A stretch of DNA of 62,314 bases, counting the filler, from Dirinaria sp. TL-2023a (taxonomy: Eukaryota), in NCBI GenBank assembly GCA_051941275.1. It is 17 parts of 17 records of this genome, joined end to end, with 100 filler letters (N's around TTAATTAATTAA, not from the genome) between each part and the next. Parts side by side here need not be neighbours in the genome. Positions count along the whole stretch, not along the records: positions 58,770 to 62,314 come from JAVEBF010002024.1; 16 more parts are not named here. One strand, written 5' to 3'. Below, one piece after another: positions 29,384 through 62,314 of the stretch. Position 1 is the first letter of the stretch; every line of letters begins with the position of its first letter. The notes beneath the pieces are model-generated. The model made no database searches and was not told the origin of the DNA. It worked only from the letters and a program-made list of their open reading frames with translations. A program made the translations under genes and the position numbers.

Positions 29384-29483
29384 NNNNNNNNNNNNNNNNN
29401 NNNNNNNNNNNNNNNNNNNNNNNNNNNTTAATTAATTAANNNNNNNNNNNNNNNNNNNNNNNNNNNNNNNNNNNNNNNNNNNN

Positions 29484-31092
29484 CAATAGCGTTGCAAGTT
29501 CTTCGGCAGACAGATTGTCAAGTAGAAGGACCACACTGCCCACCACCTGCCGTAGACGTATGATGACTTCTTGTGCTTCCTGATCGGAGAAGTCATCTCT
29601 CATTGAGCTGACAAGAACCATTAAGTACATCGCATCAAGTGAGTCTGTCGATTTGTGCTTTGCGACACTTTCTTGACAGACTTGCTCGAGCCGCGCAGAT
29701 GCCGAGACTTGCCGCGGACCGTTGACATATCGACATACAGTAGCAGCGTAGATGAAGAGACCGTCTGCACGACTTGTGATATCTTGAATCTTGTCTGCTC
29801 CAGGCCATGAGTCAGGCAAAGATCTTTCGGTCTTGATTTGCAATAATTCATGAGTGACGAATCTTTTAATATCTTGATCTACAATGGCGCGCGGTACATC
29901 ATGTAGAGCTAATGCAAAATACGCAATGTGCTTCATTTTATTAAATCCTAGGCGGACCGGAATTTCTGGTCGACTGGTCACCAGTACGCGAAGGCCGAGA
30001 CCTATGAGATTTTGAGTGTCACCGAGCAAATGTAGGAGCAGGCGAATGTCGTCGAGGTCGTCACATTCATCTAAAGCATCTAGCACCACGACGAACGAAA
30101 GTGAATGCGATACGCTCCGTCGAGTCCGTTGAAGAGGACGAAGAAGTAATTTGTCGTATTGCTGAGAAAGTGATGCGGAGTCGGCAAGGCCAGGATCTTC
30201 TCGCAGAGCATCGCAGACGAGACTGCCAAAACGAGGTGATCGGATCGCCAGTTGGAAAACAACAGTGGTGATCACCTTTCGTGAGCGAGCTAGGTCACCA
30301 GCACCACGCTTGAAAAAGAAGCTTGCCAGTGAAGCACCTTGTTTGTCAAGTGCTTGAGCTATGGTCAGTGCGATCGTAGACTTGCCTGTACCTGCTCGAC
30401 CTTGAAGCCAAAAGATGTATTGACTAGAGTCACAGATCGCCCAGTCTGTGATCTGTTGTAGAAGGCCAACCCGTGTATTAATGAGACACGACCGATGTCG
30501 TTGATTTTCGTAGGAGTTGTATGCCGCATCTCCGATGCGTGAGATCGATTTCAACAGCTCGTCGTCTCGACCTTGGTCGATTTTGCGATCAATAGTCTTG
30601 GAGATATCGCTAGAAATCATATATCAGTCATGCGAATAGACATAACTTATGAATAGACGAATACTTATTATCGAGCTGTAGAGCAGTATTGAAAATGACT
30701 AGATAGCCTTCCATCAACCTCACCTCTTCATTCACTGAAGATTTCGATAACGGCCACTTGAGCGCTCTTAAGCCGATCCTGCTCATGGTTTTGTGTCCCG
30801 TCTTGGGCTGAAGCTTCTCCTGCAATTTCTTAAGGTCTTGTAAGCACCGATCGACAGATTTCCGCACATTATCAGATAGAATTGAAGGCTGTGGCTTTGT
30901 TTCATCGTCCACTTCAACCATTCTTTGAAGCCTTTGAAGCACATCGCTCAAGGTCATCGCCTTTTGTTGCAGTCGCTCAATGTCCTTACGAGCATCCTTC
31001 ACATCGGCGATGTAGCCGCCACACAATTTCGCTACCGAGCCAGCGACTTGGACCACAGCAATAATGCTGCTCACAGATCCTAGAGCCTCCAT
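29484..31092 (-). CDS. Fungal NLR-like STAND protein: N-terminal helical (HeLo-like/SesA-type) domain plus NACHT, 3'-truncated
   Basis: N-terminus MEALGSVSSIIAVVQVAGSVAKLC..Y...VKDA..DI.RL and ALKWPLSK. Intron at 30610-30664. CLINTRVGLLQQITDW, Walker A GRAGTGKST, ASFFFKRG, Walker B VVVLDALDEC, VLVTSRPE, ADGLFIYAATVCRYV. Confidence 0.92.
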
Positions 31093-33155
31093 GAGTATGA
31101 TAATACCCAAATGATGGGGAGAGGAATAAATCTGGCCTGGTCTATATCCATCTTCAGCCTCAGCTAGTGGGGTGGGAGTGGCTTAGTCGTATGCCAAGCA
31201 ACCGAAATTGTGGTGGCGTAGCTGGCAAGGCTAAAGAAAGAACGCATTCGATTTGTTGAACAACTCTATCTACATTACAAGCCAATACCGTTGTATCATC
31301 GTGTTTTGATCCCAAGCCTTATATTGAATACTGCCGCACAAGACTATATTTCTTCAATCCAAAAATTTCGACTTCATGCCTGTGATGTTTCAATCCTTCT
31401 ATACGTAATATGTCTGTCCATCAGTCGAAGGCTTTTGGGACTTCTTTGATATCGCGCTTCCACTGTATTCCAACCTTCTTGTCTTGAGTGTTGATTATAG
31501 CACTGCCTACTTCAATTGAACGGATTGACAGTCTGACTAGCTTCTCTTTATTTTGCTCAAACAGGCAGTCGTTCGTATCGAAGACAACGACACGGTCAGC
31601 GAGAGTCATTACCTTTAATGATTGATGTATGCCAAACCAGTATTTTGATCGACACTGATGGCGTTCGATTTGCTTAGTGTGTTGTCAAAAGATCGAAGAT
31701 ATGCGTTCAGCGTAATGTCAGTGAGTTTTCCTGTGAGCACAGTGGACATCAGCATCACGCTGAAGGAACAATGGAACCGGCAATGAACAGATTGGATCCT
31801 TTCTTATTCGAAGTATAATTTTAAACTTGCATCTACTCAGCCAAACCATGCCATTTGGATATCATACAAAGCTCTTTCCATCCGGAGCTATGGAAAGACT
31901 ACAAGGACTCCCAGCCCCTAGTAAGAACAAGCTCTTCTTCTCTTTATTCTTTGCTGAGCTGAAAGAGGCGTTGGAAGCAGTGAACGTTGCAAAATCATAA
32001 AATCTACATAATGAAGCGAGTGCGGTCTACAACCTCTTTCGACCGTATCAGGCAGTTGGTTTGGAGGACGATTTCTATGACAAGGCTTGAGTGCTAGCAC
32101 TGAATAGCAGTGACGAGATGTGGAGACTTCTCGTCACTGGGTTTTCAAAGTGGGCATGAATGCAGCATCTACTACTTCAAAGTTCTGAGACGTTGGGCAG
32201 TTGAAAACCCGAGAGACTTTGAGATCTCGAATGCAAGAGCTTCGATGAGAAATGTCGTGAACTGAATGCAGGGTGTATTGTTCAAAGACTTATCTGCTAA
32301 AGTGAACATTTATGATAACAGGCCTGAACTAGAAGATGCTAGCATGTCTCTGATTTCGGATTGCTCTTTTGTCGATGAAACGCAGTCTGTTCAGAAAGAG
32401 GTTCTCAAAATGGAATTTGAATCTGTGCATGAATTCACTGAATCGGCGCACGATGATGCTTTAATAACAAGTCAAGCGTCGAGATTCTCCCATTTCATAA
32501 ACGAGAAGAAGGGAGTTAGGTCTAACAAGTGCCAATAGAGCTTTCCTTGACGGCGCGACGCCGAGCCAAAGTCATCACTCTGCATGGAAATAGCTATACT
32601 CTATATGCGTGGGCAATGTTCAGCGCAGACAGTAATTTGAATCTTCGCTAGGCAATTCACAATGCATAAATCCGAGAGCGTACTCGATGGTTTTACTATC
32701 GGGCAGTTAACATACAATAAATTATTTATTCTGGCTTGCTAGCTGTCTCGGCGTTTAGATTGCATAAGAAAGTAGCATCCTGAGAACATTAATTATAAGC
32801 TCACTAAATATGTTCTTCGGGAATCTCCGATAATGAACTCTCGGAGCGCGGTCCAAGTCGGGACTTCTTGCATACTTGTGACCTATGCTGACCGTCGAGG
32901 GCCAGTCTCTTCAGACCGACACTCGGGATACAACTCTTGCAAGATCGGTTTTGCAAGTCCCTGTGAAAAGTCGTCTCAAAAGGAGCATCAAGATGTTGAT
33001 GATTTTCAAATCATCGCATTGTCTGAGAGAAAGCACTAATCTTTCTTCGCTCTTGNNNNNNNNNNNNNNNNNNNNNNNNNNNNNNNNNNNNNNNNNNNNT
33101 TAATTAATTAANNNNNNNNNNNNNNNNNNNNNNNNNNNNNNNNNNNNNNNNNNNN

Positions 33156-33520: not shown

Positions 33521-34596
33521 TCTGACTCTGGTACTTAAGAGGAAATTTTGCGAACGACGCGAGAGAGGCGGTTGCCTAGTTGAACTTGGCCATGCTAAAG
33601 CAGCGACAGGAGTTGAAACGCGTTTGCTTTCACATGAATCCTTGCGCCGGCGATTGGCGCACATCGCCCCACTTGTGATTCTCGCTTAGCTCATCATTGG
33701 CTGGTGTCGAGCGCTAAGCGGCATGCGTCGAGGCTAGGCATCCGGAGTGATGTTAGTGCCGATGAGAGAATTAGAGAGGCTTTAGAGCAGCCAGTCACAG
33801 CCTCAGCAGAGTCAGCACTTCGACAGCCTACTTAAAGAGCTCATCCCCCCGCCGTCGCTTCCTTGAGAGAGTCTTGGCACTCGGCAGATTTGACACGCAC
33901 CCGTCGATTCTCCCTCCCCTTCCTCCTCTCTCTCCTTACCTACACATCAACCTCCCCTTTCTCACCCCCTTAACCCAACCATCGAGATCATCACATCCAC
34001 CACCCCTCAGTAGTGGATCTCTTACATTCCTCTTTTCTGCTAGTATTTTCCTAATTAATACTTGAAAGACGCAACCCTCACTGTGTGTGCGCTTTCCATT
34101 CTCTACCACCAACATCCCAGAATCCCACCTTCCGATTTGATCTTAGCGACTTCTTTGGTGTGACCTCACATCATCCTCACCTTCAAATCCACTCCAAATC
34201 AACTCCAGTCGACACTCCGTCACATCAACAGCACAACACTCATCAGTGGGTCAACTGGGCTGCATCTGGTATCGCGCCCTACCTTGTCCGTGCGATTTAG
34301 TGTTGCGCGACAATCAGACTCAGTGTTGATCGCGCAGCGGCTGTAGGGGAGGCATTCGGTTGTTTATCTCCCACATACGGTACGAACATTACTTACCCTG
34401 GTCGAACCTCGAACCTCGCAGCTTCACCTCGCTCTTTGCGACAAGCCTCGATCTCACCATCGAACTTGGATCCGCGAGATTTAGTCATTTGCCATCTTCG
34501 ACCCAGATTCTAACAGAGCCTTCCTAGACTGCCGACTTCCAAATCAACTCGCCTTCACCTGCTAGCGAACCTGGTCGACATCTGGTGATCTTGACC

Positions 34597-35560
34597 ATGG
34601 ATACTGCCCTTACTACCCACCCCTCCACCGCAACTCAGGCAAATGCCTTCATCTCGCCTGCCAGCTTGTCGTTCCCAGGTGGAGCTGGAGACTTGACGCC
34701 CCCTTCTGAAAAAGATGGAAATACCCAGGCAACTGGACAGGCAAACGGCGCGAGTGCGTACACCAGCGGACAGCAGCCTAATGGAGGGAATGTTGCCAAC
34801 GGCAACGGGGTGACTCCCACAACCCCTGCTGCGACCCCAGGTGCTGGAGCGGGTGTGAGTGGGATTGTCCCAACCTTGCAGTGAGTAGGCTCCTTGCTGC
34901 CTCATCTAATTCATGAGGCTTAATGGCACACTCTTCAAAGGAACATCGTCTCCACGATCAACCTGGCGTGTCGCTTGGACTTGAAGACGATTGCGCTTCA
35001 TGCGAGGAATGCTGAATACAATCCCAAGGTACTGCTGACAAACCATGCCAAAGTTCTGACTTTGTGCTAAACAATTTTCCAGCGTTTCGCGGCCGTTATC
35101 ATGCGTATCCGCGAACCAAAGACCACAGCGTTGATCTTCGCTTCCGGCAAGATGGTGGTCACTGGCGCAAAATCGGAGGACGACTCCAAGCTGGCGTCGC
35201 GTAAATACGCTCGGATTATTCAGAAGCTTGGGTTCAACGCCAAGTTCACGGATTTCAAGATCCAGAATATCGTTGGCTCTTGCGACATCAAGTTCCCCAT
35301 CCGCCTTGAAGGCCTGGCTAGCCGTCATCACAATTTCAGCTCTTACGAGCCCGAGCTGTTCCCGGGTCTCATCTATCGCATGATGAAGCCCAAGATTGTC
35401 CTGCTGATCTTTGTCAGCGGCAAGATTGTTTTGACTGGGGCCAAGGTGCGGGAGGAAATCTATCAGGCATTCGAGTTGATCTACCCTGTGCTTGCCGGTA
35501 TGTTCTTTGTGAGCCATGATATGCGCTTAGCTGACACCTTCAGACTTCCGAAAAGTCTGA
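34597..35560 (+). CDS. SPT15: TATA-binding protein (4 exons)
   Basis: Exons 34597-34880, 34941-35028, 35083-35497 and 35544-35560 give [57 protein letters not shown]...[13 protein letters not shown]...DFRKV*. Confidence 0.98.
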
Positions 35561-57200: not shown

Positions 57201-58330
57201 ATGCCTGTACACCATCATCGAGGCACTGCCCATCGCTCTCGTAGTCCGAAAAACTCACATTCCCCATCCAGACGCCGGCGCTCCCACTCTCCGCTCCATC
57301 CGCGTGCCGATCAGTCCTTGGCGCGCAAAGGTCAACGCCATGAACGATCGCTTTACAGCAACCTACCTCCGGGCACTCCCGAAATCAGTAAGCACGACTT
57401 TAGAAGGTTTCGATCCGTATTTGCCCTTTACCTCGAGGTGCAGAAACAGCGGGACATCAATGAGTTGCCAGACAAAGAGGTGATGGGCCGATGGAAGAGC
57501 TTCGTTGGCAAATGGTAAGCCGAACCGAAACATGAAGCTTTGAAACGAGCTTTGCGCACAAAGTGCTGAGCTAACAGTCGTGAGGAATCGCGGAGAACTA
57601 GCAGAAGGATGGTACAGCCCACAGACTTTCGAAAGGGCCGAGGCTTGGGTAACAGACACCCCACCAGACGCTGCAGAAACTCGAATCAACGCTGCTGCAT
57701 CCGGAGATCCAGGGATCGCCCTTGACGTCAGCAGCGATGAGGACATACCTGGACCAGTGCTACCGAGCCACTCCATTCCGGTCGCGAGTAGCACTAGGCG
57801 ATCGGGACCTACGATACCCAGTCTCCAAGATTTGGAGCTACAGCAAGGTAAGACGACGCGTGCTTGGATCCATAGATATGTTGACTCATGATGCTTTAGA
57901 AAACGCCACCGAAGAGTCCCTCCAAAAGCGCGAACATCTACGAGAATTACGGCGGCTCGATCGTAAGCAGCAGAAAGCTCAAACCGAGGACCTTCTACCT
58001 CGCGCTGAGGCTGGCACCAAGGAGCGCATGTTGGAAAAGAAGCGAGAGAAAGCCGATGCCAACCGCGCCTTCGCAGCTGGGAAGACGGAAGCCGGCGGTG
58101 TCGACGATGTAGCGGACAGCGATCTGCTGGGTGGGGAGGACGAAGGCATCGAAGGGTACAAGAAGCAGAAGCGGGAGATGGAGCGGAAGAAGAATGAACG
58201 AGAATTGAAGAGGGAAGAAATCTTACGGGCGAGGCAGACAGAGCGCGAGGAACGTTTGCAGAAATACAAAGAGAAGGAAGAGCGGACCATGAGTGGGTTG
58301 ATAGCACTGGCCAAAGCGAGGTTTGGATGA
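57201..58330 (+). CDS. Conserved fungal hypothetical protein (RS-rich N-terminus, coiled-coil C-terminus), 3 exons
   Basis: FALYLEVQKQ, GRWKSFVGKW|NRGELAEGWY, GPTIPSLQDLEL, LPRAEAGTKERMLEKKRE, ending LAKARFG. Introns at about 57515-57584 and 57848-57899. Confidence 0.8.
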
Positions 58331-59448
58331 AATGGAGTCGAAGGATAGAGCTGCAGGATGCCCATATATTTCATTTGACAATTTCATTTGACAATTGATG
58401 ATGCCTATGAAAGCTACGTCGTCTTTTGTCAACGGATATGATCTTGCATGTGAAGTGTTGACCACATCCCTCTTTGGGCACTCGAATCACGGCAGCATCG
58501 TGGCGACTACGTTGGGAAATTCCAATCCCTCAACTCCCGAAAGTACCTTGGACTGCTGCGAGAATGGTCAAATAATATGGGATTGAACAATGCTCTGAAT
58601 AATGTTGATATGCGTGGCCATTGATCGCAATAATTTGTTCCGTATGAAATCGCCTCCCTCCCCCACCATNNNNNNNNNNNNNNNNNNNNNNNNNNNNNNN
58701 NNNNNNNNNNNNNTTAATTAATTAANNNNNNNNNNNNNNNNNNNNNNNNNNNNNNNNNNNNNNNNNNNNCCCCAAGAGTACCGAGATACGCCCAGATGCT
58801 CAAGACAACAAAAAGGCACACCGTTCTGGATTAGAAAAGGTAAGGCAGCCTACAGATCGAAGCATTCGAATTGAACAGACGTCTGATTCATCTGGCCAGC
58901 TTTGACTCCCACCTTGACTCTAGGGATTATGTGATCCTAATAGCAAAGCTCAAAGAAAAGTATCATTGGATGTAGTATGTGATACTGAAAAATCCTCGCA
59001 GAGAAAGTCTACCTTATGGTTGGGCTCCCTTCTCTTGGCCGGTTCAAAGATGATTTGGCGCGCCCCTGCCCCTGCATTATGTTGTGAGGGAACACTCATC
59101 ATATAAATGCATACCTGAAGGGCGCTGTACGATTTTCGATCGCAACCTCTGCTCTCGCCTTGTTTCGGTGTGTCTCCGACTATCAATCTCATCCTACCTA
59201 GTCAAATGCGCAACGGAGCATCTCCGTTTGCCAAATCTTCAAGGCTAAGGACTATTCTAGAACATACATAATCCGTAGATCTGCACTCATCTTGCGGCAC
59301 AAAGCTGTTTCGCGTTGGACCGTAGGATAGACTACGTATTGGTGGCTTAAGCAATTCATCCGATAATGTGTGCGGCTACCGTGGCCACAGGATAAATATC
59401 TAGAATGCTCCGCCAAACAACAAGACTCCGATATCAAACTACAGTCGC

Positions 59449-60663
59449 CTAGATCACCACATCTCCGCCTGCATATGATGATTTGGACCAGTATAATCCA
59501 TCCGGTGTCCACTGCACCAAGGATTTGTATTCATCGAATAAGTTTCGGCCGAGGATGCCGCGACCTGGACCCCTCGCCTCAGCATCCTGCAAGCTGAAGC
59601 CGATGCTACCGGGTGGGCCTCGAGCTCCTGCCTTCGCAAGCCCATCAGCCACACGATTTGCCTCCCTCGGTACATGTTCAAGCACAAGCGCAACGCCATC
59701 GCTCCGGAATACTTCTACCGCTTTGTCCATTATTTGAAATAGGTCTTTGTTTGCGACGGCCTTCTTCTGTGCGGTACGGTAACCATTAGTCTTCCACATC
59801 GGAATCCAATCATTCAATCCCTGTACAGCATACATCGAATCCGTTAAAACACGGATCCGATTGCAAGGGATGCCTCGTGCATAGATGAAGTGCAAGGCAC
59901 GGATAACGGCGACGAGCTCCGCCCGCTGGTTTGTGTGCTTTTCTTCAAGAGGTAGCAGATTTCCAATATCCCAGTCTCTTGAAAGTTGAGGGAAATGAAT
60001 GCCGTAACCTCCACGGGCTGGGTTATCCTGGCTTTGCCCATTCGATAGGCAACAACCATCTGTGAAGACGACCAGTTCCTCGAGAGTGTCAGGCGGCCGA
60101 GCTGGCAGTTCTAACTGGAAGCCGTTGTCGGTCCATTGCGCACGAATGAAGTAATGTTGTAAGAAATCCATGCCGAGTATAGCGACAAATTGGGATTCAA
60201 ATTCGTGACGGCAGAATATGTGGTTGACGACAAAGAAATCATGCTTAAAGGAGTAACCCTGATGTTGGAGATGGACCGTGCCGATACCGCTGACCTTCCA
60301 CTTCGGTGCAGTCTTGTCATTCAGCGGATCCTCGCCCCTCATATTCCCAAGAGTAGTTGAAAAGGCAACGCGGGATATTCCGACCGAGCCCAGAGAGCGT
60401 TGTGAGCAGGTGACACCTTCGAGGGTCTTGCCAGCGACATGAGCCCGGAAGAAGGACTCTAAAATTAGACTTCTACTTGTGCTATCCTGAACTATAGCTT
60501 TGAAGGTCACAGGAGGGGTATCGACGTCCCCGGGTAGAATCATCTCCACGCCGGACATCTTGGGCAAGGCAGACAGCTCGCCAGAAAGATGGAGCATGCT
60601 TAGAGTGATAGAGCAGGGACGGAGCACCTCAGCATGAGTCGTCGTAGGCATCGTGTGAGGCAT
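59449..60663 (-). CDS. Retropepsin-like domain fused to cellular-type RNase H
   Basis: C-terminal half has VFTDGCCLSNG, TNQRAEL, LTDSMY, W...W..NGY, VANKDL, HVPREANRVADGLA (D-E-D-D intact). N-terminal half has FKAIVQDSTSRSLI...GTVHL...FFVV...ILGMDFL. Confidence 0.85.
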   Translation of the reverse strand: MPHTMPTTTHAEVLRPCSITLSMLHLSGELSALPKMSGVEMILPGDVDTPPVTFKAIVQDSTSRSLILESFFRAHVAGKTLEGVTCSQRSLGSVGISRVAFSTTLGNMRGEDPLNDKTAPKWKVSGIGTVHLQHQGYSFKHDFFVVNHIFCRHEFESQFVAILGMDFLQHYFIRAQWTDNGFQLELPARPPDTLEELVVFTDGCCLSNGQSQDNPARGGYGIHFPQLSRDWDIGNLLPLEEKHTNQRAELVAVIRALHFIYARGIPCNRIRVLTDSMYAVQGLNDWIPMWKTNGYRTAQKKAVANKDLFQIMDKAVEVFRSDGVALVLEHVPREANRVADGLAKAGARGPPGSIGFSLQDAEARGPGRGILGRNLFDEYKSLVQWTPDGLYWSKSSYAGGDVVI

Positions 60664-61371
60664 GACACCGTTTGTTCTGCGACTCGTAAGGACAGCTGCT
60701 AATGGAGACGCCTTGAGAGGTGCACTTTTTTGGGATGGAGGATTGTGCTGAAAGGAGGTAAAACTTTGTAAACGTCGTTAAGAGAGCAGGAAGAGAAAAG
60801 CCGAGCAATATCAATATTACTCAATTGACTATTGAGAGGGGTTTCAGAAGCAGTAGCGAACCGCTTCATCCTAAGCTAACCTGCCGGTGCCCGTCGGTGT
60901 CGACGGGCACATAAGGTATCTCTTCGTTATGAAACGACGATAGGCTCCATAACTTTGTGCTGCGTCTGTGCAAAGCACCGGTAAAAACGAGTCACCAAAA
61001 GACCCTCTAGTACAGAAGTCTAAGGTACGCTAGAAGTCCTAGCTAGCATAGCGTACGCCGAGACCGAGTCGTCTGGGCAAGGTAAGCTTTGGTGAGCGTA
61101 CGATAGGTGCGTCTTGGGTAGAACTTGGCTGATCAAGGGCGAGACACTTAGGTGGTCACTCCAGCTGATCGAACGAGTGGCAGTGATTTCGCTAGTCGGG
61201 GCCTATGGCGAGGACTTGTAGATTGAAAAACAGGAGAGCTGGTTCAATCGAATACAAGTAATGTAAGGTAGATAGATAACCCTAATCTACCCTAATAAGC
61301 GAGGTTGCCTGACCTTATCACCCTCATCCGGCAATCTGGTCATACAATGGGAAATCTAATGGAATTCCAAC

Positions 61372-62314
61372 ATGCCACCAGCAGCCCAATTCACCTCAAC
61401 TCCGACAAATCCACCATCATCCATCCTCGTCATTGGCGCCGGCGTCTTCGGTCTCTCCACCACTCTCTCCCTCCTTCTCTCCCCGCACTACAAACCCACC
61501 CAAATCACCCTCCTCGACACCCACGCTCCTCCTAGTGACGGCCTCCACTCCCAGGACTCCTTCAATCCGCACGCCGCATCCATAGACACCTCGCGCATCA
61601 TCCGCGCCGACTACGCCAACCCTGTATACTCCCGTCTCGCGGAAGAAGCACAACAGCATTGGCGCACCGAATACACGGAAAACGGGATATACCATGAAAG
61701 CGGGATCGCCATCCTGGGAGAACAGGGTAAGAGCGGGTGGGAGTACATAGAAAAAAGCAGGCAGAATGTGGGATGCGAAGCGGGCGGAGAGGTACAGGGG
61801 CTGGATAATGTGGAGGAAATCAAGAAAGCTCTGAAGACAGGAGGTAGCGTGGGCAAGGCCGGGTACATCAACCGTTGCAGCGGGTGGGCGGATGCGGGCG
61901 CAGCGATGGCTGCAATGCGACGACGAGTAGATGAAGAAGCGCGACAGCAAGGGAGGAGAAACCTGTGGAAGCGAGGAACAGCGATCGAACTACTTTCCGC
62001 CGCAGAACCGGGCACTACCAGCACCCAACAACAACGCCGAGAACGACGAAGGAAAATCACCGGCATCCGCCTCTCCTCGGGCGAAACACTCACAGCATCC
62101 CTAACGATCCTCGCAACGGGAGCATGGACAGGCTCACTGATCGATCTGCGGGGCCGCGCCGAAGCCACCGCGCAAGTCCTCGCCTACATCGACCTAACCC
62201 CCACCGAACATACCCAACTGCAAAAAATGCCCGTCGTCCTGAACCTCTCCAGCGGACTCTTCGCCATCCCGCCCTCCCCAACCTCCAAAACCCCAACCTT
62301 CAAAATCGCCCGCC
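61372..62314 (+). CDS. FAD-dependent oxidase (sarcosine/pipecolate/fructosyl-amino acid oxidase family), 3'-truncated; missing from the supplied ORF track
   Basis: MPPAAQFTSTPTNPPSSILVIGAGVFGLST (Rossmann GxGxxG), NPHAASIDTSRIIRADY, YHESG, GYIN..SGWADA, ILATGAW. Frame open to the window end. Confidence 0.92.
   Translation, partial: MPPAAQFTSTPTNPPSSILVIGAGVFGLSTTLSLLLSPHYKPTQITLLDTHAPPSDGLHSQDSFNPHAASIDTSRIIRADYANPVYSRLAEEAQQHWRTEYTENGIYHESGIAILGEQGKSGWEYIEKSRQNVGCEAGGEVQGLDNVEEIKKALKTGGSVGKAGYINRCSGWADAGAAMAAMRRRVDEEARQQGRRNLWKRGTAIELLSAAEPGTTSTQQQRRERRRKITGIRLSSGETLTASLTILATGAWTGSLIDLRGRAEATAQVLAYIDLTPTEHTQLQKMPVVLNLSSGLFAIPPSPTSKTPTFKIAR

Follow-up and report, generated by a model that had tools for sequence, protein, structure and literature searches.

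RNase H1 is normally targeted by a hybrid-binding domain (HBD), and retropepsin folds are normally dimeric proteases. Here we describe a gene of Dirinaria sp. TL-2023a (assembly GCA_051941275.1), found in a 62,314-nt stretch of joined DNA (the window), whose product, P0001, combines a predicted retropepsin-fold pseudo-protease with a cellular-type RNase H. As given in extracts of PMC7072860, retropepsins are recognized by a D-T/S-G-A motif, obligate dimerization, the fireman's grip and a consensus helix; the motif requires Asp and, one noted exception apart, Gly, and the helix sequence is G-R-D/N for retroviral proteases and G-L-D-M-L-K/R for Ddi proteins. The Ddi family itself is defined by an RVP domain together with a UBL domain, according to an extract of PMC5028754. 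In the part of a survey of the RNase H-like superfamily available as an extract (PMC3985635), aspartic proteases are mentioned only within Bel/Pao polyproteins. Full-text literature searches returned no description of a pseudo-protease joined to an RNase H. Each domain of P0001 is of a known kind, and it is their combination, together with the N-domain family, that appears to be undescribed.

We propose, with a probability of roughly 70%, that P0001 is an accessory, lineage-restricted RNase H in which an active nuclease is joined to a non-catalytic binding or scaffold domain; this is a structural and mechanistic reading. A resident single-exon host gene of Lecanoromycetes would encode an RNA:DNA-hybrid nuclease of unusual build. 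Its cellular-type RNase H1 core, with an active site that looks complete by sequence, would do the catalysis. The HBD of canonical RNase H1 would be replaced by a Ddi1-like retropepsin fold that lacks Asp-Thr/Ser-Gly, and this presumably dead protease, rather than acting as an enzyme, would hold the RNase H in position as a binding module or scaffold. A C-terminal helix–hairpin would complete the protein as a third module. The features of the gene are as follows.

59449..60663, minus strand: complete single-exon open reading frame (ORF) of 404 aa plus stop (P0001), with an uninterrupted frame
60085..60633, minus strand: N-terminal retropepsin-fold pseudo-protease domain, residues 11–193, assigned by AlphaFold2 model and fold matches
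60478..60489, minus strand: degenerate active-site loop Q59-D60-S61-T62 in place of D-T/S-G-A, assigned by column counts and model
60160..60174, minus strand: consensus-helix motif G164-M-D-F-L168 of Ddi type, assigned by model helix 165–170 and column counts
59620..60078, minus strand: RNase H1-type catalytic domain, residues 196–348, assigned by Pfam and by PDB sequence and fold matches
59563..59607, minus strand: variable linker, predicted disordered, residues 353–367, with a predicted local distance difference test score (pLDDT) below 50
59485..59550, minus strand: conserved C-terminal module of a helix and a beta-hairpin, residues 372–393, assigned by conservation and model

The three modules account for the whole 404 aa. 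An initial annotation of this DNA had described an uninterrupted 404-aa frame, and exactly such a frame is present on the minus strand at 59449–60663. P0001 aligns end to end with its relatives, with no gap suggestive of an intron, and the RNA contigs that match it contain no splice joints. One database protein, P0002, is 100% identical. The two strings quoted in the initial annotation map to residues 56–67 (AIVQDSTSRSLI) and residues 162–168 (ILGMDFL).

The RNase H half is recognized directly by sequence. PF00075 (RNase_H) matches residues 196–347 with an E-value of 2.1e-23 (83.5 bits against a cut-off of 25.8). A weaker RVT_3 match is also present, and PF00075 and PF13456 are the only families reported for P0001 at E ≤ 10; at that threshold neither the HBD (PF01693) nor the RNase H families of long terminal repeat (LTR) elements gave a match. 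Among PDB sequences, human RNase H1 (E 1e-18) matches best together with E. coli RNase HI (about 1e-16 to 1e-17), and retroviral RNase H domains are much weaker (1e-8 to above 0.01). The motifs TDGCC, TNQRAE, TDS and AD align with human RNase H1 and yield the carboxylates D202, E249, D275 and D340, which are retained in 38, 39, 39 and 38 of 39 relatives; in the human structure 2qk9 the third catalytic residue is mutated (D210N). The PF00075 match, the human alignment and this conservation bear out the earlier call of an RNase H of cellular type whose four acidic residues are all present.

Structure comparison points the same way. Matches to human RNase H1 reach Z 21.1–21.2 at 34–35% identity, and the full-length model superimposes on the human catalytic domain with Z 21.2 and a root-mean-square deviation (r.m.s.d.) of 2.0 over 145 of 149 residues (35% identity). 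Other RNase H folds score lower: 17.8 for foamy virus, about 17 for archaeal enzymes and 7.0 for Ty3. A WxxxWKxNGY segment (W286, W290) aligns with human RNase H1, and both tryptophans and the T-N-Q-R-A-E motif are near-invariant in the family; we take this Trp-rich segment to be the basic protrusion and DNA-binding channel. P0001 thus shares with eukaryotic RNase H1 the DEDD tetrad, T-N-Q-R-A-E and the Trp-rich protrusion. It differs in having a 190-aa pseudo-protease in place of the HBD, a four-residue loop deletion and a C-terminal hairpin, and in belonging to a family that, among named matches, is limited to one fungal class.

The N-terminal half is an orphan by sequence: residues 1–195 have no Pfam match even at E ≤ 10. 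Its structure was predicted with AlphaFold2 from an alignment of residues 11–193 that included the corresponding part of 23 relatives, or 24 of the 39 rows in all. The model has a mean pLDDT of 91.6 and a predicted template modelling score (pTM) of 0.88, and all five models reach at least 90.0. In a Foldseek search against the PDB, ranks 1–10 are all Ddi1 RVP domains, followed by the proteases of equine infectious anaemia virus (EIAV), Rous sarcoma virus and xenotropic murine leukaemia virus-related virus (XMRV), and by pepsin lobes. A second aligner, independent of Foldseek, was used to compare the N-domain model with 48,161 chains. It placed the RVP domain of Toxoplasma Ddi1 (7d66_B) first, with Z 10.6 and an r.m.s.d. 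of 2.6 over 108 of 120 residues; the retroviral proteases of EIAV (Z 8.3), XMRV (7.6) and feline immunodeficiency virus (7.5) were also matched. Twenty-one of the 24 top rows are titled retroviral, retropepsin-like or pepsin-type proteases, and the remaining three are 2pma (DUF785), 9iy9 (a putative endopeptidase) and 4ehc (the Rv0977 C-terminal domain). With this aligner, Z-scores of 7–8 are common for unmatched models; the Ddi1 score of 10.6 exceeds that range and the list is homogeneous. Retropepsin matches were also obtained in the viral structure library BFVD, and the ESM-Atlas neighbours are retropepsin clusters, at scores of only 0.84–0.86 that we regard as a lead only. The retropepsin fold suggested earlier for the N-half thus holds in the model, on its pLDDT of 91.6 and on Ddi1 and retroviral proteases heading both structural searches.

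Ddi1/Ddi2, a host protein and not a mobile element, is therefore the closest described structure, the best match of the N-domain and the one whose type of consensus helix it shares. The differences are substantial. The family of P0001 lacks D-S/T-G-A (Asp in 0 of 39), and P0001 has no Pfam match to a UBL or UBA domain at E ≤ 10, unlike the Ddi family. Its N-domain exceeds the Ddi1 domain by about 60 residues, contains an insertion and an additional N-terminal strand, is fused to an RNase H and has no similarity to Ddi1 detectable at the sequence level. The aligned retropepsin core begins at about residue 31, and the strand at 15–21 (LSxLHL, with invariant L24 and H25) is an addition outside it. 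Prediction of two N-domain copies together scored 0.00 in both runs, with the controls not folded, and counts neither for nor against dimerization.

At the active site the protease signature is lost. In the model, the loop Q59-D60-S61-T62 directly follows the strand 52–58. Position 59 is Ser in 21, Gln in 14, Met in 2, Phe in 1 and Cys in 1 of the 39 relatives and Asp in none; position 60 is Glu in 24 and Asp in 13, position 61 Ser in 33 and position 62 Thr in 38. None of 24 members has D-T/S-G at the catalytic column, and the three stray DSG strings lie at unrelated positions. P0107, a distant member that matches the domain profile with E 3.5e-11, reads AIVDIGTADSF, with D and G on columns 59 and 61, which supports the ungapped register that puts Q59 at the catalytic Asp. 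The alignment is thus consistent with the initial annotation, which had placed Gln at the catalytic Asp and considered the domain probably inactive. The consensus helix is better preserved: helix 165–170 carries G-M-D-F-L, and the family consensus is G-L-D-F-L-R (G in 26 of 39, L in 21, D in 24, F in 31, L in 38, and R in 15 plus K in 5).

The N-domain might instead still be a protease, an active non-canonical acid protease that uses the D or E at position 60. That position (60484–60486) adjoins the lost Asp column, is acidic in 37 of 39 relatives and is followed by the near-invariant S61 and T62, and the register is that of a sequence alignment. Such an enzyme would, however, have Glu in place of Asp in 24 of 39 members and Thr at the invariant Gly of D-T/S-G-A, and the D-x-G of P0107 lies one column earlier; the published motif, as extracted from PMC7072860, requires Asp and, one exception apart, Gly. 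If D/E60 were the catalytic residue, most members would have Glu for Asp and Thr for Gly, so that by alignment the signature would be lost in either register. We consider a surviving protease very unlikely. P0107 is the sole sequence with D-x-G at the protease active-site column and a singleton in a search of 5.8 billion proteins. Two of the distant members, P0107 (512 aa) and P0117 (1009 aa), have long N-terminal extensions of low complexity.

The third module lies beyond the linker 353–367, which varies in length and, in the Lecanorales clade, has up to about 60 additional residues. It consists of a helix (373–379) and two strands (382–386 and 389–393), predicted with pLDDT 73–85, and carries the motif K-P-L-V-Q-W-S/T-P-D-G-x-Y-W, each residue of which is kept in 33–37 of 39 relatives. 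The full-length model has a pTM of 0.85, and in it the N-domain, the RNase H and the C-terminal hairpin probably pack as one compact body. Bilobal pepsins align with residues ~32–398 of this model, about 40 residues more than with the N-domain alone; for endothiapepsin, the aligned length rises from 130 with the N-domain to 169 with the full-length model. The longer alignment is a hint that RNase H and hairpin may take the place of a second lobe or subunit.

From this arrangement a speculative and rather doubtful picture can be drawn, that of a self-closed pseudo-dimer. The RNase H, the C-terminal hairpin and the extra N-terminal strand would fill the place of the second protease subunit or pepsin lobe, and the dead cleft would face the nuclease as a composite groove. 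The protein could then act as a lichen-fungus restriction factor that recognizes Gag/Pol or protease and degrades the RNA of nascent reverse-transcription intermediates. The only structural hint of such closure is the pepsin alignment over ~32–398, with its ~40 extra residues, together with the full-length pTM of 0.85. If true, P0001 would be the first retroelement restriction factor to derive from a protease and to be armed with a nuclease.

To place P0001 in its family, we collected relatives by a word-index protein search. It gave 76 matches, 70 of which (P0002–P0071) have E ≤ 1.3e-54; most of these 70 cover 93–99% of the query at 42–78% identity. The last six match the RNase H part only, and two of them (P0073 and P0076) carry the PF01693 HBD. 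In their source records the relatives are called 'hypothetical protein', 'Ribonuclease H1' (Mycoblastus, Alectoria) or 'ribonuclease H-like domain-containing protein'. The 12 named rows come from Gyalolechia, Xanthocarpia, Teloschistes, Villophora, Heterodermia, Mycoblastus, Usnea, Alectoria and Letrouitia. Lineage was checked for two named species, both Lecanoromycetes, and we take the remaining named relatives to be lichen-forming Lecanoromycetes as well. Among named matches, the family is apparently confined to lichen-forming fungi of this class.

A quick maximum-likelihood tree was built from 39 of the 71 sequences, after fragments and close duplicates had been set aside. There are two clades in it, each with a Shimodaira–Hasegawa-like approximate likelihood-ratio test (SH-aLRT) value of 97: Teloschistales and Caliciales fall in one and Lecanorales in the other. 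The first (15 rows) holds the window protein, Teloschistaceae and Heterodermia, and the second (22 rows) Mycoblastus and Usnea; Letrouitia and P0047 have long branches. Two clades that follow taxonomy fit vertical descent. Beyond this group the N-domain is rare: its profile found only 51 proteins at E ≤ 1e-3 among 1.84 billion representative proteins. Of 17 distant members scanned, 8 have an RNase H (5 above and 3 below the Pfam cut-off) and 7 are without any family. P0095 and P0115 were rejected as members, their matches being repeat or low-complexity artefacts. P0098 and P0099 are proteins of about 600 aa with long unrelated C-terminal tails.

Related DNA shows that parts of the family are decaying. 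A metagenome scan matched 351 stretches, 231 of them encoding relatives, and the best 80 were taken; only four loci among the 80 include the N-domain. Two of the four, the lichen-associated L004 and L005, are almost identical across the gene (1 difference in 1,200 positions), and in both the copy (L004:6001-6921) is broken by several frameshifts and stops, making it a natural knock-out. L001 has one in-frame stop and one frameshift, and L002 has one frameshift and a Ser in place of the invariant Gly of TDG. Together with paralogs that have lost the catalytic tetrad, these loci argue for ongoing decay and suggest birth-and-death evolution. The flanks of L001 and L002 encode a ZIP transporter, a gamma-glutamyl transpeptidase and an HhH-GPD protein.

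This pattern bears on whether P0001 could be the mycobiont's own housekeeping RNase H1, removing R-loops or serving mitochondrial DNA replication after a lineage-specific replacement of its HBD. Human RNase H1 is the nearest match of its catalytic domain, the Mycoblastus and Alectoria relatives are named 'Ribonuclease H1', and the tree is consistent with vertical descent. Against this, HBD-bearing RNase H proteins (P0073 and P0076, whose source organisms are not established) appeared in the same search, the syntenic L004/L005 copy is pseudogenized with its neighbours intact, and other paralogs have lost catalytic residues. An essential housekeeping enzyme is not expected to decay in this way, and we regard this explanation as unlikely. 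Lineage restriction, decayed copies and paralogs with a dead RNase H instead argue for a dispensable accessory role.

Several observations weigh against an accessory RNase H built on a pseudo-protease scaffold. For the N-domain, none of 24 family members matches an aspartic-protease Pfam family at E ≤ 10, and its profile finds nothing related among PDB sequences (one chance match, E 1.4). The Foldseek matches are modest: the best E-value is 7.9e-4, the only one at E ≤ 1e-3, alignment r.m.s.d. values are 4.5–11 Å, and template modelling scores are 0.44–0.63 when normalized to the target (retropepsin-type) and 0.35–0.41 when normalized to the query (top ten). The Q59 register comes from sequence alignment, and with an acidic residue kept at position 60 by 37 of 39 relatives, non-canonical activity may remain. 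For the nuclease, P0001 reads HVPRE----ANRVAD where human RNase H1 has HVPGHSGFIGNEEAD, a four-residue deletion. The His-containing loop found before the last Asp in the human and E. coli enzymes is thereby missing. In the human enzyme this HVPGHSGFIGNEEAD loop carries the His that assists product release. At the family level, several divergent paralogs (among them P0078, P0081, P0098, P0099 and P0103) keep the pseudo-protease and have lost the RNase H carboxylates, and all three distinct related DNA loci (L004/L005 heavily, L001 and L002) are disrupted. Finally, the three RNA contigs come from a relative, and none spans the boundary between the two domains.

Those contigs were obtained from one lichen-metagenome RNA-seq run (0.06 share of words). 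They are short, 92–96% identical to the gene, and cover 59435–59699, 60257–60414 and 60457–60673; their lack of cover over 59700–60256 is no evidence either way. Thirteen of the 27 listed differences (40 in all) are synonymous, against 25% expected for random changes. We treat them as weak evidence of expression and selection, DNA carry-over being possible.

The surroundings of the gene can be read only within its own contig. The window consists of 17 joined contigs of ~3.5–3.6 kb each, in order of decreasing length, with 16 artificial joins between 3597 and 58769. The joins are marked by 32 runs of exactly 44 N, paired around TTAATTAATTAA (N44-TTAATTAATTAA-N44), a string that we take to be a six-frame-stop contig linker convention. 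Gene-neighbourhood arguments across the joins are unsafe, and no linkage to the ORF can be demonstrated for DNA on the left of position 58670. The features next to the gene are these.

58670..58769, no strand: artificial contig join, N44-TTAATTAATTAA-N44, assigned by the linker pattern
60664..61371, no strand: divergent intergenic region of 708 nt common to the ORF and the oxidase gene, presumably a promoter region
61372..62314, plus strand: 5' part of a flavin adenine dinucleotide (FAD)-dependent oxidoreductase gene (PF01266, E 1.7e-15), with a 64% identical gene beside the homolog in L004

Because the contig that truly bears the ORF spans only 58770–62314 (3,545 nt), the FAD oxidase is its sole demonstrably linked neighbour. 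The longest contig listed for P0002 also measures 3,545 nt. The oxidase, which the initial annotation had also named, is confirmed by PF01266 (E 1.7e-15) and starts at 61372 on the plus strand, 708 nt upstream of the ORF and divergent from it. The GC (guanine plus cytosine) content is unremarkable (0.47–0.53).

The same neighbourhood can be traced in L004, where an intact FAD oxidase, 64% identical to that of the window, is followed about 500 nt downstream by the broken copy. L004:122-4987 is colinear with three window contigs, at 57303–58350 (K/E-rich), 34314–35508 (TBP) and 61410–62292 (FAD oxidase); the gene order on L004 is a K/E-rich coiled-coil-like gene, TBP and FAD oxidase. The neighbourhood is thus common to both, with the gene on the other side of the oxidase in L004. 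The three window contigs carrying TBP, the K/E-rich gene and the FAD oxidase probably lie together in the real genome.

These data also bear on a retroelement origin. P0001 resembles retroviral and LTR-element Pol in having retropepsin and RNase H folds in one polypeptide in the same N-to-C order, and the protease–reverse transcriptase–RNase H structure of foamy virus (7o0g) matches its two halves separately (protease Z 6.4, RNase H Z 17.8). It differs in having no reverse transcriptase (RT) between the domains, no integrase, gag or LTRs and an apparently dead protease, in an RNase H that resembles cellular enzymes more than it does Ty3 (Z 7.0), and in its seemingly low copy number and host-gene flanks. 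Could it nevertheless be a relic, a multicopy fragment of an LTR-retrotransposon pol that no longer has its RT and evolves free of selection? Retroelements do combine a protease with an RNase H, a number of copies are broken, and copies are found at different host loci. Yet the open frame and the three modules are conserved across two orders at 43–78% identity, the RNase H appears to be of cellular type (Ty3 RNase H reaching only Z 7.0), and differences in the RNA contigs are enriched for synonymous changes. An exhaustive N-domain profile search found no polyprotein; long proteins (708–2020 aa) sharing the RNase H part were likewise not found, which we count as weak evidence. Each protein cluster lies on 1–3 contigs, no LTRs or terminal inverted repeats occur at the ORF, and no RT, integrase or gag is encoded in the flanks. 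We judge a relic to be highly improbable, even less probable than a surviving protease.

The evidence on flanks has a defined reach. The ORF is not flanked by long repeats, either direct or inverted. The initial annotation's statement that RT, integrase, gag and LTRs are absent stands for the 3,545-nt contig and does not carry beyond 679 nt on one side of the ORF and ~1.65 kb on the other. Around the homologs, 22 of 52 ORFs in 5–6-kb flanks of L001, L002 and L004 were surveyed (the others being nested or lying over the homolog), and none of the 22 encodes a transposable-element domain, including RT, integrase and gag. As far as is visible, then, P0001 is not a multicopy transposable-element fragment: there is one copy in the window, each cluster is found on 1–3 contigs and the flanks are free of such elements. 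The family has the look of host genes present in few copies that duplicate and decay, not that of a transposon.

A Pfam survey of the window covered 53 of the 76 ORFs of at least 120 aa, the omitted 23 being nested in or overlapping longer ORFs. Ordinary fungal genes were found, on what are unlinked contigs, and RT, integrase and gag were not found among the 53. The sole transposon-like domain found in the window is a DDE_1 superfamily endonuclease fragment on an unlinked contig (13695–14594, minus strand, E 3.9e-17). A fungal NLR-like gene fragment (29439–31182, minus strand) has NPHP3_N/NACHT after a PigL_N-type N-terminal domain and crosses or abuts the contig join at 29384–29483.

What an accessory RNase H of this build would act on can be addressed tentatively. 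Lineage restriction and a birth-and-death pattern are common in conflict genes. In this family, lineage restriction and the decay of copies and of paralog catalytic residues mildly favour a conflict-type role, such as retroelement control, as one possibility. Action on reverse-transcribing elements is our leading specific guess at the biological target, at a level well short of even odds. In a more specific version of the accessory RNase H reading, raised already in the initial annotation, P0001 may be an anti-retroelement factor: the pseudo-protease would mimic an element protease or bind Gag/Pol, for example by forming dead heterodimers with protease monomers, and would carry the RNase H into reverse-transcription complexes, where the RNA template would be destroyed prematurely.

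Such a role is possible and somewhat more plausible than the closed pseudo-dimer outlined above. Both modules have retroelement counterparts, and the family is lineage-restricted and has birth-and-death features, with pseudogenes, paralogs with a dead RNase H and only 51 clusters in 1.84e9 proteins. The HBD is absent, so that targeting must come from another module. Against it, the N-domain is nearest to host Ddi1 and not to an element protease (Z 10.6 versus 8.3), its helix is of Ddi type, and the main clade follows taxonomy with moderate divergence and without an obvious rapid-evolution signature. We know of no protease-derived restriction factor. Fv1 and Ty1 p22 are gag-derived restriction factors. 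They offer an analogy only, that of a host-kept retroelement-like module that may interfere with retroelements; they derive from gag and not from a protease, and neither couples its module to a nuclease.

The accessory RNase H of lichen-forming fungi proposed here is a ready case for pseudo-enzyme study, and the decaying copies and paralogs in lichen mycobionts are natural knock-outs for comparison. If P0001 were instead a housekeeping variant, it would still be an example of an unrelated fold taking the place of the HBD. Should the pseudo-protease guide the nuclease to reverse-transcription complexes, the family would represent a new class of genome-defence protein and a clear exaptation of a protease fold as a targeting module.

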